From IMG/VR virus record IMGVR_UViG_3300050194_000017, positions 25,722 to 89,721 of that record: DNA of 64,000 nucleotides; one strand, given 5' to 3'. Below, in pieces: positions 37,299 through 63,746 of the stretch. A model generated the notes under the pieces. It had not been told where the DNA came from. It saw nothing but the letters and a program-made list of their open reading frames with translations, and searched no databases. A program made the translations under genes and the position numbers. This DNA is from a virus. The stretch's first letter is position 1. Each line of letters opens with the position of its first letter.

Positions 37299-37679
37299 AT
37301 GGCAAAGAATTTTGAAACTCTTGAAGTTGGCAAGTCTTACAAAAATGGTGCTGGCCTGATCGTTAAAATTATTAAATTCGAAATTGAATACAACGGCGAT
37401 GAATGGCCTTATTGTGGCGATGATTTATCATTCTATAGAAAAGATGGTTTTTATGACAATGAAAACCCATCATCAAGAGATCTTGTCGAACTGATTGAAG
37501 ATAATCTAGTCTCGAACGAAACATTGTTCTTGATTGAGCAAAACAATACACTTGTCTTGGTGAAAGATCTTCCGATTGGAAAGTCTATTAAGGTTTTTCA
37601 AGTAAATGCAACTCCTCGAGATCTTGATACTGCTTTCAATGTTTATCAAGCTATAAACTTCACTTGGATCACGCGATGA
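37299..37679 (+). CDS. Hypothetical protein
   Basis: RBS GGAG; LEVGKSYKN...DLVEL small beta domain. Confidence 0.7.
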   Translation: MAKNFETLEVGKSYKNGAGLIVKIIKFEIEYNGDEWPYCGDDLSFYRKDGFYDNENPSSRDLVELIEDNLVSNETLFLIEQNNTLVLVKDLPIGKSIKVFQVNATPRDLDTAFNVYQAINFTWITR

Positions 37680-38950
37680 TCAAAATCGAATCAACAAATC
37701 CAAAGTTTTCTTGGATTCTCAGGAAAAATCCTGAGACACAACGAACAAAGAATGAGCCATTCTCAAAAGCATTGCGTAAAGGAATGTCGTATGGATGGTT
37801 CACAACGGATCAACAATTCAATCTTTTGTTCATCGATTCGAAGACAGAGACATCCTTCAATACGATTGGCGACTTCGAATATCTCGATCGGACACGCTAC
37901 TGTTCGCCATATCTTCCGATTGCATTGATTGCTAATCTTTTGGCATCTGCACAAAAAGAAGATGTTCCGGAAGATACAGCTGACTTTCAAACGACTATCG
38001 AGTTCATTTCAGAATTTTCTGATCCAAAACTTGCACATCGAGTCATCAAAACAGTAACAGATGCAAAGATTGAGCTTGTGCAGATGCAACACCATCTATA
38101 CAATGTGAAAATCAGTGCAACCGGAGTTCGAAAAGCTCTGAATTGGACTATTGCTTTCTTGATCACACAAGCTGTCTTGGATCCGATGATTTACATTCCC
38201 ATGGATGATGAATCTGTGAAGAAGTACATCAATGCACTGAATATCGTTGACGCGCCGTATTACATGCGTTACATCACAGCAAACAAATGCATTAAATCTC
38301 CTGTTGTTTTTGACACGGTGAAGAATTCTCTGGAAAACGAAAAGTTCCAGATGAACTTTGGAGATTCACAGAATCATCGTTGGCTTGCTATTGAGAAGCA
38401 TTTGAATGGTGGCGCTGCTCTTTTTGATATTGGTTGCGGTGAGTTGTATTATACTCGTCGTCTATACAATCGATATGAGAAGTTCTTTGCTTTTGATGCA
38501 GATGAAAAGATCCAAGATCGAAATAAACATCTAGTAAATCTACGTTGTCAAGATAAGATTGATCTACTGGGGAAATTTGATTCGACGTATGCAGATGGAA
38601 GTATCACAGATAAAGATGATGTTCTATTGACAGAAGTGTTGGAACACATGCCCAAGGAAACTGCTGTGGAACTACTGGATCAGGTTCTACGTGGTGATTT
38701 CCGTCGAGTTGTTGTCACTGTACCTAATGTTGATTTTAATCGATTTTACGGCCTCTACGGCGATGATAAACGACATCCAGATCATCATTACGAACCGACT
38801 CAAACAGAATTCGAAACTTGGATGAAAAATGCAGCATCAAAAGTTGGATGTGGTGTTGAATTCTTCAATGTTGGAGATGGAGTAATTGTAAATGGACAAT
38901 CGATCTATGCTTCACTTGGAGCAACTTTTAAAAAGGAAAAGAATGAGTAA
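37676..38950 (+). CDS. hen1: Bacterial-type Hen1 RNA 2'-O-methyltransferase
   Basis: N-terminal ...SWILRKNP; C-terminal DIGCGE, TEVLEHM, VTVPN..FN, RHPDHHYE..QTEF..W. Confidence 0.78.
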   Translation: MIKIESTNPKFSWILRKNPETQRTKNEPFSKALRKGMSYGWFTTDQQFNLLFIDSKTETSFNTIGDFEYLDRTRYCSPYLPIALIANLLASAQKEDVPEDTADFQTTIEFISEFSDPKLAHRVIKTVTDAKIELVQMQHHLYNVKISATGVRKALNWTIAFLITQAVLDPMIYIPMDDESVKKYINALNIVDAPYYMRYITANKCIKSPVVFDTVKNSLENEKFQMNFGDSQNHRWLAIEKHLNGGAALFDIGCGELYYTRRLYNRYEKFFAFDADEKIQDRNKHLVNLRCQDKIDLLGKFDSTYADGSITDKDDVLLTEVLEHMPKETAVELLDQVLRGDFRRVVVTVPNVDFNRFYGLYGDDKRHPDHHYEPTQTEFETWMKNAASKVGCGVEFFNVGDGVIVNGQSIYASLGATFKKEKNE

Positions 38951-39953
38951 TTTCACTTTGGCTAACAATGTGATGCTCGAGATCCAAGATATCTCAGAGT
39001 TGCGTTTTGTTAATTTCATCAATGATCTAGCAAAGAAGAATCTTTCGACGCTAATGCGAAAGTTTAACTTCATGAAGAATACTGATTTTTCATTCCATCG
39101 TTTTGCAACACTTCATGGATTCGTTGTGATTGAAGGCGAGGATCGTTATTCTTCTGATACGAACTATGTGATGATCAATGAGAATGAGAACGTTGCTATC
39201 AAAGTGGAAACAAAGTCTGCATTTCTTCCATTCAAGTTCTATGGAGAAAGCTCGAAGGTGAATCATTACATTTCTTTCTTCAAGGAACATTTCACAGAAA
39301 CAGGACCGATGATTCGCTGGGTATATGATGAACATGGAAGTTATACAAACGTTCCTCTTGTTTCTCGTGGTCTTGTGAAATCTGCATATCCATTCATCGA
39401 AGGAAATGTATCAGATTACATTGATGACTATATCAATTCGGATGCCTCGATCATTGTTTTTATTGGGCCACCTGGAACAGGAAAGACATCTTTGATCAAA
39501 GAAATCATTTCTAGATCAACTCGTCCTGCTCATGTTTCATATGACATGAAGGTCATGAATGGCGAATCTCTTTTTACAGAATTTATGACATCTGATTCGA
39601 TGTTCTTGGTTATGGAAGATGCAGACGCTTTCCTTGCTTCGCGCAAAGAAGGTAACACTATGATGCATCGATTTTTGAATGTTGGTGACGGTTTGATTTC
39701 AACGAAAGGTAAGAAGATCATCTTTTCGACGAATCTTCCGAACATCGAAGAAATTGATCCTGCTTTGCTTCGTCCTGGGCGTTGTTTTGATGTAATGAGT
39801 TCCAGAGAACTGACTCGTTCAGAAGCAGAAGCAGTACGTGAAGAATTGAAGATTCCTTTTGAACTCGAAGATAAAGAATCGTTCTCTCTTGCAGAAATCA
39901 CGAACAAGATGCGCACACATAAACAAAAAACAAGAACAGTAGGATTTTATTGA
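38943..39953 (+). CDS. AAA+ ATPase
   Basis: GPPGTGKT, LVMEDAD, FSTN, DPALLRPGRCFD. Confidence 0.88.
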   Translation: MSNFTLANNVMLEIQDISELRFVNFINDLAKKNLSTLMRKFNFMKNTDFSFHRFATLHGFVVIEGEDRYSSDTNYVMINENENVAIKVETKSAFLPFKFYGESSKVNHYISFFKEHFTETGPMIRWVYDEHGSYTNVPLVSRGLVKSAYPFIEGNVSDYIDDYINSDASIIVFIGPPGTGKTSLIKEIISRSTRPAHVSYDMKVMNGESLFTEFMTSDSMFLVMEDADAFLASRKEGNTMMHRFLNVGDGLISTKGKKIIFSTNLPNIEEIDPALLRPGRCFDVMSSRELTRSEAEAVREELKIPFELEDKESFSLAEITNKMRTHKQKTRTVGFY

Positions 39954-40297
39954 TGGAAAAGATTTTACAACTAGATGTTCCAACTAAAAATGGAACCACA
40001 TATACAACTGAATGTATCTCAGCAATGTTGAAAACCATTAAACCTGAAATATTCGGTCAAATTGGAATGGCTACATTCGTAGATTTAGAGAAAGTGTCGC
40101 ATGTTTGCACAAATTTCAAAATTGAAGACGGATGGCTACAATGTGATATCAAAGTTCTAGATACGCCATGCGGTAAGATTTTGAAAGATATGAATGGTGG
40201 CAATTTTGCTGCTTCTGGAATAGGAAATATTGATACAGATAAAATTGTCTCAAACTACGAGTTGACAGGCGTGCATTATGTCATGAATAGATCATGA
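39950..40297 (+). CDS. Short prohead-protease (gp21/S77)-like protein
   Basis: KNGTTY, LEKVSHV, KVLDTPCGKILK, ASGIG resemble the gp21 fold; the catalytic His context is missing. Confidence 0.45.
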   Translation: MMEKILQLDVPTKNGTTYTTECISAMLKTIKPEIFGQIGMATFVDLEKVSHVCTNFKIEDGWLQCDIKVLDTPCGKILKDMNGGNFAASGIGNIDTDKIVSNYELTGVHYVMNRS

Positions 40298-62864: not shown

Positions 62865-62866
62865 TC

Positions 62867-63124
62867 ATGCAATACATTTTGACTCAAGAAGAATATGATG
62901 CACTTCTGAAAGAAAAGAAGAAAAAATCTCATCTATCAGATAAGAAGCTTGGTGATCTTTGCAAGAATATTGCCAACACAATGCCTGTCAAATGGGGATG
63001 GGGCGGACCAGATCCAAAGCCATGGACGTGTCGTCATAACGATGAATATTTTGATTCAGAGTGGTATTGTGACAAGTGTCCAGTTCAAGAAATTTGTCCT
63101 CTTTCACATGATTATTCGAAATGA
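62867..63124 (+). CDS. Cys-containing hypothetical protein
   Basis: YILTQEEY...YCDKCPVQEICP. Confidence 0.7.
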   Translation: MQYILTQEEYDALLKEKKKKSHLSDKKLGDLCKNIANTMPVKWGWGGPDPKPWTCRHNDEYFDSEWYCDKCPVQEICPLSHDYSK

Positions 63125-63321
63125 AAGAAATCATCAAACTCAATTCTGTAGCTAAAGATGTTGTTCATATCTTCAGTCACCATATCATATCTTTTCATCG
63201 TACATCTTACAATAATGGATCGATCATTTTCATGAATTCGTATAAAATCGAGGTGAATGAATCGCCAGAAGAAATCATGGATTTGCTATATCCAAAACAA
63301 CAGAACACAGGACCAAGATAA
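63121..63321 (+). CDS. Hypothetical protein
   Basis: IEVNESPEEIMDLL (FlbD-like small domain). Confidence 0.55.
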   Translation: MKEIIKLNSVAKDVVHIFSHHIISFHRTSYNNGSIIFMNSYKIEVNESPEEIMDLLYPKQQNTGPR

Positions 63322-63746
63322 TGGAAAAAGACATCAAACAAGTCATTGTAATGCGCAAAGATCTTAACATGCGACGAGGCAAGCAGATTGCTCAAGGAGC
63401 ACATGCTTCTATGAAAGTCATCTTAGATTTGATGAGTTCGGAAGAATATGACTGGTCATGCGTTCATGCCAAGACTGAAGTTCATCGTTCTTTTTCTGCT
63501 ACGAAAGGATCATATCTGGATCAATGGTTGTCTGGTAGATTCAAGAAAATTTGCGTCTATGTTGATTCTGAAGAAGATCTATTGGAAATCGTAAAGAAAG
63601 CTCGAGATGCTGGTATGCTAAATTCTCTGATCTTAGATTCTGGATTGACTGAATTCGGCGGAGTTCCGACGCATACATGCTGTGCTATCGGTCCACATGA
63701 TGGCGATGAAATTAACAAGATCACCGGACATCTGAAACTTCTTTAG
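63321..63746 (+). CDS. pth2: Peptidyl-tRNA hydrolase, Pth2 family
   Basis: KQVIVMRKDLNM.RGKQIAQGAHAS, KKICV, DSGLTE, TCCAIGP, TGHLKLL; ends in TAG. Confidence 0.92.
   Translation: MEKDIKQVIVMRKDLNMRRGKQIAQGAHASMKVILDLMSSEEYDWSCVHAKTEVHRSFSATKGSYLDQWLSGRFKKICVYVDSEEDLLEIVKKARDAGMLNSLILDSGLTEFGGVPTHTCCAIGPHDGDEINKITGHLKLL

Follow-up and report, generated by a model that had tools for sequence, protein, structure and literature searches.

In bacterial Pnkp-Hen1 systems it is established that RNA repair is accompanied by methylation of the junction and that the ligase is activated by Hen1's N-terminal domain (PMC4411300). Among phages, the RNA repair gene sets of jumbo phages have been read as counter-defence by Iyer et al. 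2021 (PMC7824862), and XacN1, a tRNA-rich jumbo phage of Xanthomonas (PMC5852040), encodes Hen1 with a Pnkp-type ligase, Thg1, Pth2, the receiver-type domain cREC, a CCA-adding enzyme and ligases of the Rnl2 type. Phage T4 has both an anti-PrrC pathway of Pnkp and Rnl1 and a second ligase, Rnl2. Here we describe a 64,000-nt stretch of viral DNA (the window; bases 25722-89721 of the 96,962 bp IMG/VR viral contig IMGVR_UViG_3300050194_000017) that carries Hen1, a three-domain Pnkp and many further genes for RNA repair and tRNA recycling. Coordinates are those of the window unless marked as contig coordinates.

Nine families (Hen1, Pnkp ligase, Thg1, PTH2, a separate Rnl2-type ligase, cREC, Rnl1, CCA-adding enzyme and DUF2828) were scored in 20 phage records, comprising 14 IMG/VR contigs with Hen1, four isolates with Hen1, BcepSaruman and the present contig. 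The contig holds the fullest RNA-mending and tRNA-recycling set among these 20 records, the leading ones of which compare with a smaller complete Hen1-Pnkp phage (G009) as follows:

Present contig, 97 kb, about 44% complete (CheckV): nine of nine families
XacN1, 385 kb: seven of nine
G014 (provirus), 416 kb: seven of nine
G013, 504 kb: six of nine
RAS14, 320 kb: six of nine
G009 (complete Hen1-Pnkp phage), 181 kb: four of nine

The original prediction had called the set unusually complete and redundant, which if anything was an understatement, as the best of the 19 other records reaches seven families and the contig has three RNA ligases, one of the Rnl1 type, one of the Rnl2 type and one as the ligase domain of Pnkp, as well as a pair of 5' kinases, three or more candidate end-phosphoesterases, two genes of the Pth2 type and enzymes for restoring both tRNA ends. 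We consider it probable, judging from these gene families, that they form a layered toolkit for damaged tRNAs, used alongside the 20 or more tRNA genes of the phage to undo host attacks.

The replication module of the contig is of the T4 type and includes a gp45-like clamp and a polymerase of family B (gp43-type PolB). As this polymerase is at most 38% identical to that of any of 50,697 GenBank phage records, the closest being cyanomyoviruses, the phage is assigned by its replication genes to a deep, uncultivated T4-like lineage. The genome is estimated at about 210-220 kb, which agrees with the 212-kb length of a contig encoding a protein that is 99% identical to this phage's Rnl2. When the 9.5-kb stretch with Hen1 and Pnkp was compared with phages by megablast, zero matches were obtained.

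Hen1 and the three-domain Pnkp

37664..38950, plus strand: Hen1, RNA 3'-terminal ribose 2'-O-methyltransferase, with an N-terminal Hen1_N domain (Pfam Hen1_N, 1.5e-43); the likely start is the ATG at 37676
44808..47174, plus strand: three-domain Pnkp, consisting of a 5'-OH polynucleotide kinase, a calcineurin-type 2',3'-phosphatase and an adenylyltransferase/ligase (Pfam AAA_33, Metallophos and PNKP_ligase, the last at 2.1e-24)

The phage Hen1 has the Hen1_N domain and the C-terminal S-adenosylmethionine (SAM)-dependent methyltransferase with metal-binding Glu and His residues that define its family. In a 34-sequence alignment the SAM motif (D255, G257, G259 and E260) and the metal-binding or catalytic residues E324, E327, H328, H371 and H374 are invariant. 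Its top match in the PDB is Capnocytophaga Hen1 (4xrp_C, 2e-31), its nearest homologues (55-63% identity) lie on Logan contigs, and no PHROG family matched it. In Pnkp, a P-loop 5' kinase is joined to a binuclear metallophosphoesterase and, at the C terminus, to an adenylyltransferase that has its motif I lysine; the motifs GPSCCGKT, GDVHE, GNHE and PKYMGS (containing the lysine, K505) are all present, and residues 4-438 match TIGR04075 at 2.9e-48. The phage Hen1 and Pnkp are divergent members of their families, since they score well under the NCBIfam equivalog cut-offs (TIGR04074 and TIGR04075), with 69.6 bits against 340 for Hen1 and 164.7 against 750 for Pnkp.

The kinase, metallophosphatase, ligase and Hen1 methyltransferase of the bacterial systems are thus all represented; the phage Hen1 retains the N-terminal ligase-activating domain, and Pnkp has the bacterial fused three-domain layout. 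The ligase domain is nevertheless nearer to the stand-alone Rnl of a three-protein system, that of the Capnocytophaga Pnkp1-Rnl-Hen1 complex (4xru_B, 6e-29), than to the CthPnkp ligase (3.5e-8). The setting also differs, being a T4-like phage in which the two genes are 5.9 kb apart, in contrast to the single operon of bacteria. An AAA+ ATPase, a dCMP deaminase, a DUF932 gene and small ORFs (open reading frames) lie between them. In all 14 other IMG/VR contigs with Hen1, the gene is followed directly by Pnkp with a gap of 28-574 nt. The gene order on the Hen1 side is common to at least one relative: on L124, a metagenome contig of 10 kb, synteny with the window runs from the deazaguanine genes through Hen1 (47% identity) and the genes for the ATPase and deaminase to DUF932, at which point that contig ends.

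The AAA+ ATPase gene (38892-39953, phrog_14322) overlaps the Hen1 stop codon and has the same position in L124, with 42% identity. It is probably not a partner of Hen1, being found beside Hen1 only in L124, with distant or generic matches elsewhere. The deaminase (40294-40716) was rejected as TadA and is dCMP-deaminase-like. Two genes past Pnkp, a 498-aa zinc-ribbon metallophosphoesterase is encoded on the plus strand (47499..48995), with two N-terminal CxxC pairs and the calcineurin-type motifs GDEH and GHSH. It has zero Pfam matches and matches phrog_1745 (5.4e-121), labelled "DNA transfer protein", and its membership in the repair toolkit is uncertain.

Hen1 is rare among sequenced phages. 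It was found in five of the 50,697 GenBank phage records (XacN1, RYC, CM1, RAS14 and sm033), adjoining a Pnkp-type ligase in each, and none of the 50,697 records matched Pnkp over at least 80% of its length. A single-protein scan of IMG/VR with Hen1 gave zero relatives; an alignment-based scan found 14 more contigs with Hen1, all with a Pnkp reading frame of 810-890 residues, and as only two peptide patterns were used this number of phages is a lower bound. The bacterial-type three-domain Pnkp with Hen1 is thereby extended to phages, with 15 uncultivated examples.

The same activities are packaged differently elsewhere. In XacN1 the Hen1 module is split into kinase, Hen1 and ligase, without the fused Pnkp of the present phage, and RAS14 likewise has the three as separate genes. 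XacN1 ORF197 (L071:7290-8504), annotated as "metallophosphoesterase", is a PNKP_ligase-type ligase. The "polynucleotide kinase" ORFs of RYC (L072:5998-8151) and sm033 (L074:2998-5178) are fusions of Hen1_N, methyltransferase, kinase and HAD_PNKP that lie beside a stand-alone Pnkp-type ligase. By their domain content, phages arrange these four predicted activities in at least three gene layouts. What is new in the present analysis is the occurrence of bacterial-type Pnkp with Hen1 in phages, the separation of the two genes in this lineage and the three phage gene layouts; each component comes from a known enzyme family, and the overall concept has already been published.

Thg1 was found in 164 and cREC in 214 of the 50,697 GenBank phage records. 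Since independence predicts far fewer than one record with Hen1, Thg1 and cREC, their co-occurrence is not due to chance. Seven other phages with Hen1 and Pnkp were read end to end; their Pnkp and Hen1 are both 34-39% identical to those described here, and four of the seven also have Thg1 (41-45%), Pth2 (52-56%) and a Pth2-like protein (39-43%). A PolB related to that of the present phage was undetectable in all seven. Each of these eight phage records has 9-22 tRNAs, often near Hen1 and Pnkp. As Pnkp, Hen1 and tRNAs are common to them and PolB is not, the module travels with tRNA arrays across unrelated lineages.

The same observations bear on a different explanation, in which the accessory genes were acquired independently and some act on substrates other than RNA (cyclic ADP-ribose signals for cREC, DNA ends or nucleotides for the kinases and phosphoesterases). 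The genes are indeed scattered over about 70 kb among unrelated genes rather than in a single operon, they move between lineages, as the lack of a detectably common PolB indicates, and the literature ties cREC to NAD and ADP-ribose systems (PMC7824862, PMC9503650). We consider such an unconnected collection improbable, however, because the co-occurrence is far beyond that expected from independence, the same families and tRNA arrays travel together in unrelated phages, and the Hen1_N domain is known solely as the partner of a Pnkp-type ligase (PMC4411300).

Further ligases, healing enzymes and recycling genes

The original prediction had named Hen1, Pnkp, cREC, Rnl2, Thg1 and Pth2 in the window, together with kinase, phosphoesterase and Pth2-like genes in the tRNA region. 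All were found where it placed them, with Pfam or PHROG matches and intact motifs, and further members of the set were located upstream of the window.

50335..50652, plus strand: cREC, a stand-alone cyclic-phosphate-processing receiver-type domain (Pfam cREC_REC, 3.3e-22; 79.4 bits against a cut-off of 27)
59212..60195, plus strand: Rnl2-family RNA ligase of the nick-sealing type (Pfam RNA_ligase, 1.1e-14; phrog_548, 7.7e-66)
61778..62632, plus strand: Thg1-like protein (TLP), a 3'-5' nucleotidyltransferase (Pfam Thg1, 4.6e-29, and Thg1C, 2.7e-9); the likely start is the ATG at 61826
63321..63746, plus strand: Pth2, peptidyl-tRNA hydrolase of the archaeal/eukaryotic type (Pfam PTH2, 1e-32; 113.2 bits against 23)
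9106..9516, plus strand: stand-alone polynucleotide-kinase-like P-loop kinase (Pfam AAA_33, 5.3e-13; phrog_2071 and phrog_505, polynucleotide kinase; P-loop GIPGSGKS)
9518..10090, plus strand: calcineurin-type metallophosphoesterase (phrog_547, 1.8e-46; motifs DQHFGH, GDLAMN, GNHD and HGHLH)
14759..15100, plus strand: Pth2-like gene, divergent, whose fourth codon is TAG (PTH2 in Pfam at 30.8 bits for 14792-15100; cut-off 23)
Contig 21875-23074, minus strand: Rnl1-type RNA ligase (RNA_lig_T4_1, 4.8e-14; T4_Rnl1_C, 5.4e-18)
Contig 19496-20605, minus strand: CCA-adding enzyme, upstream of the window
Contig 20850-21473, minus strand: TilS-like PP-loop protein, upstream of the window
Contig 14872-16389, minus strand: DUF2828/DUF7788 protein, Ro60-like, upstream of the window

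The Rnl2 gene was chosen for structure modelling because its sequence evidence was the weakest of the named genes. On TIGR02307 it scores 37 bits, under the cut-off of 197, and the nucleotidyltransferase motifs I, IV and V are present as KLHGTN (with K38), EGIVW and KFKVK. The AlphaFold model has a mean predicted local distance difference test score (pLDDT) of 89.7, and its top Foldseek match is full-length T4 Rnl2 (2hvr_A, E 1.8e-15), with both domains aligned and ranked ahead of the trypanosome editing ligase and Rnl5. The motifs and the model together give the nucleotidyltransferase domain and helical C-terminal domain expected of an Rnl2 ligase.

In cREC the acidic residues DD8-9 and D43/D45 are present; its neighbours are a membrane protein (DUF3307) and small ORFs, with no ligase among them. 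The activity of the family has been predicted but not measured (PMC9503650). The Thg1-like protein has the conserved carboxylates, in the D of RLDG (motif RLDGKAFH) and in SDE. It is assigned as a TLP rather than a true Thg1 because its closest solved structure, the Bacillus thuringiensis TLP (4kgk, 2.6e-39), is far ahead of eukaryotic Thg1, Thg1 entries matching at 1.6e-16 or weaker. Pth2 is of the archaeal type, with 97.7 bits on TIGR00283 (cut-off 82) and a match to PDB entry 2zv3 at 4.8e-21. The Pth2-like gene barely exceeds the PTH2 cut-off and covers profile positions 3-76; its translation reads MRS* followed by the Pth2-like body. Homologues with 39-43% identity are found in four other phages with Hen1 and Pnkp.

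The contig shares with XacN1 its richness in tRNAs and all of the repair families listed for that phage at the outset. XacN1 differs in belonging to an unrelated lineage with a genome of 385 kb, in which Rnl1 and a DUF2828 Ro60-like gene were not found. With the families surveyed by Iyer et al. 2021 (PMC7824862) the contig has in common Rnl1 and Rnl2, kinases, phosphoesterases, cRec, Thg1, a CCA-adding enzyme, PTH2, Ro/TROVE, a Ter system and many tRNAs; almost every class in that list comes together here in a genome estimated at about 210-220 kb, and Hen1, which the survey mentions zero times, is added. RtcB, RlaP and 2H phosphoesterases, by contrast with those repertoires, were not found within the 97-kb contig, nor was EndA, so that all sealing would proceed through the ATP-dependent 5'-phosphate/3'-OH route.

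As in T4, a T4-like replication module is accompanied by an Rnl1-type ligase with the T4_Rnl1_C domain and by an Rnl2-type ligase. T4 Pnkp differs in having a HAD-type phosphatase, whereas the kinases of the present phage stand alone or are fused to a metallophosphoesterase and its phosphatases are of the calcineurin type. No HAD_PNKP domain was found among the kinase and phosphatase genes scanned on the contig, and the Pnkp-Rnl1 pathway in its T4 form is therefore not recognised. To our knowledge, T4 lacks Hen1-Pnkp, a Thg1-like protein, a CCA-adding enzyme, Pth2 and cREC, all of which are present here.

Two additional tRNAs upstream of the window bring the whole contig to 20 tRNAs. In a different explanation, the chief task of the CCA-adding enzyme, the Thg1-like and TilS-like proteins and Pth2 would be to mature and maintain the phage's own 20 or more tRNAs and to sustain heavy late translation, rather than to answer host nucleases. 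CCA is not encoded in four of the 20 tRNA genes (Arg, Trp, Ser-GCU and Pro) and tRNA-Trp directly abuts tRNA-Ile, the TilS-like and CCA genes adjoin tRNA genes, and Pth2 lies within tRNA arrays in related phages, all of which would suit such a housekeeping role. We think it unlikely to be the main one, as hosts already supply a CCA-adding enzyme and Pth, and three RNA ligases, two 5'-OH kinases and Hen1, whose known chemistry is break repair, would be left unexplained. A tRNA-His gene was not found on the 97-kb contig, which leaves G-1 addition by the Thg1-like protein without a visible substrate there.

On the minus strand at contig 12512-23074, the same region as these upstream genes, are also a DNA ligase, an R2K ATP-grasp protein, tRNA-Leu, tRNA-Arg and a rubrerythrin-like protein. 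The window also has a pair of genes, 56938-57696 (a PspA/TelA-like helical protein, phrog_27316) and 57891-58814 (NMT1_3-like). Among the other seven phages with Hen1 and Pnkp, six have the NMT1-like gene and five its helical partner, and in G011 the pair lies between Hen1 and tRNA-Leu. It looks like a PspA/TelA-type helical protein with an NMT1-like one and is probably not an RNA repair system.

A proposed layered repair of attacked tRNAs

The gene set as a whole is most likely a specialisation against defences that target tRNA, and we infer a counter-defence purpose, which matches the proposal made for jumbo phages by Iyer et al. 2021 (PMC7824862). Under this proposal, RNA ends carrying a 2',3'-cyclic phosphate and a 5'-OH would be readied by the kinase and phosphatase domains of Pnkp, with a second healing set in the separate kinase and metallophosphoesterase and possibly cREC. 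One of the three ATP-dependent ligases would then rejoin the ends. Judging by characterised relatives, the Rnl1-type ligase may act on anticodon-loop breaks, the Rnl2-type on nicks in duplex RNA, and the Pnkp ligase together with Hen1. Hen1 would 2'-O-methylate the junction nucleotide and so block the same nuclease from recutting; as the Hen1 N-terminal domain unlocks the Pnkp ligase in bacterial systems, repair by this route would imply methylation (PMC4411300). Damaged 5' ends could be rebuilt by the Thg1-like protein and 3' ends by the CCA-adding enzyme, and Pth2 and the Pth2-like protein may release tRNAs trapped as peptidyl-tRNA.

Candidate attackers are PrrC, RloC, PARIS, retron-linked and colicin-type tRNases. 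GNAT toxins are a further candidate, as their acetyl-aminoacyl-tRNA products are reversed by Pth. A phage-encoded ribotoxin was not found, and PADLOC returned nothing for ten unknown ORFs.

Expression of the toolkit is probably early. Promoter-like sequences precede three of the genes:

44755..44783, plus strand: near-consensus sigma-70-type promoter before Pnkp (TTTACA-17-TATAAT, 11/12)
50284-50312, plus strand: sigma-70-type promoter before cREC (12/12)
59152-59180, plus strand: sigma-70-type promoter before Rnl2 (11/12)

All nine promoter-like sites of at least 11/12 between 35.5 and 64 kb are on the plus (coding) strand, and the four that were checked against ORF starts all lie just upstream of a start codon. 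These promoters would fit early transcription by the host polymerase, as for the early genes of T4.

Several points weigh against the repair of attacked tRNAs as the purpose of these genes. The phage is uncultivated. Hen1 and Pnkp are 5,857 nt and about 14 ORFs apart and do not form one operon, so that their co-expression and complex formation are an assumption in this phage. Every match to an NCBIfam equivalog model was far under its cut-off except that of Pth2 to TIGR00283, and the specificities of the enzymes may therefore differ from those of characterised ones. The activity of cREC is a prediction in every organism, and the protein may instead act on signals derived from ADP-ribose; the total of promoter-like sites is only about 1.5-1.8 standard deviations over that of shuffled sequence.

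The gene set brings together, in one phage, almost all known activities of ATP-dependent RNA repair and tRNA recycling as a compact natural catalogue, and it is suited to testing the three ligases and the two healing sets for specialisation or redundancy. Should defences that cut tRNA, such as PrrC, RloC, PARIS or retrons, be the driver, phages of this kind would predict the lesions that these defences make, among them damage to 5' ends, damage to 3' ends and peptidyl-tRNA.

The tRNA region and its interrupted tRNA-Lys

8802..21709, plus strand: tRNA array of 18 genes, including an interrupted tRNA-Lys and a CUA suppressor (ARAGORN, Rfam)
8979..9085, plus strand: tRNA-Lys(UUU) with a 31-nt hairpin between positions 34 and 35 (ARAGORN with introns allowed; Rfam tRNA, 62.2 bits, full model)
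15139..15657, plus strand: ORF with an HD-type motif (phrog_14850, unknown function, 8.3e-55; H...HD motif YHDCGKP)

The interrupted tRNA-Lys is, by its predicted cloverleaf and model match, a real tRNA gene, and the stand-alone kinase begins 20 nt past it. This proximity bears on a suggestion of the original prediction, that the repair enzymes mature the odd RNAs of the phage. The heal-and-seal enzymes would splice the interrupted tRNA-Lys and perhaps join permuted or Y-like RNAs, with Hen1 marking the anticodon junction by a 2'-O-methyl group. Locally, the tRNA ends 20 nt before a kinase-phosphoesterase pair, and its U34/U35 junction falls within the region attacked by anticodon nucleases. 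The 31-nt hairpin also appears too short for a self-splicing intron. Comparison with other phages gave the suggestion no support: the other seven phages with Hen1 and Pnkp gave no convincing tRNA with a short intron, what ARAGORN called in G009 and G011 being poor cloverleaves, and IMG/VR had zero matches when scanned with the pattern of the interrupted tRNA-Lys. The 48 relatives of the phosphoesterase have neither a kinase neighbour nor interrupted tRNAs, and an EndA-type splicing endonuclease was not found on the contig. We accordingly give this explanation only a slight chance of being correct.

Slighter still is the chance that the tRNA-Lys is pre-immunised, its hairpin being excised at U34/U35 by some endonuclease, the ends healed by the neighbouring kinase and phosphoesterase or by Pnkp, U34 2'-O-methylated by Hen1 and the junction then sealed by Pnkp. 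Were this so, a ribose methyl at the junction would protect the mature tRNA-Lys of the phage from anticodon nucleases that cleave by transesterification 3' of U34, and a bacterial virus would have protein-catalysed tRNA splicing coupled to built-in resistance. The placement of the phosphoesterase can be compared with that of its relatives in IMG/VR, 30 of 48 of which have tRNAs within 6 kb, with at least seven tRNAs in 19 of those 30. On this distribution the family appears to be a general resident of phage tRNA arrays.

Of the genes predicted in the tRNA region, the HD gene stood only in part. The ORF itself is real, and its enzymatic class rests on the motif, as no Pfam match was obtained. 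For the Pth2-like gene, a recurrent arrangement was seen in four other Hen1-Pnkp phages, in which the gene is preceded at a distance of 100-600 nt by a tRNA of suppressor type, with anticodon CUA in three and UCA in G003:

G003:101033-101535, G004:98525-99029, G006:34544-35236 and G009:146411-147370: suppressor tRNA/Pth2-like loci

Unlike that of the window, the Pth2-like ORFs of these four phages begin MSYIY and have no in-frame stop at codon 4.

The tRNA region also includes TerC, TerD and vWA-TerF-like genes (19417-21567); by tblastn, the other seven phages with Hen1 and Pnkp had no such Ter-type module. Two ORFs with PP-binding (phosphopantetheine-attachment) domains, 8181-8792 and 21780-23285, lie close to the ends of the tRNA/Ter region; the first has tblastn matches in two Hen1-bearing metagenome contigs from termite gut, L156 and L163.

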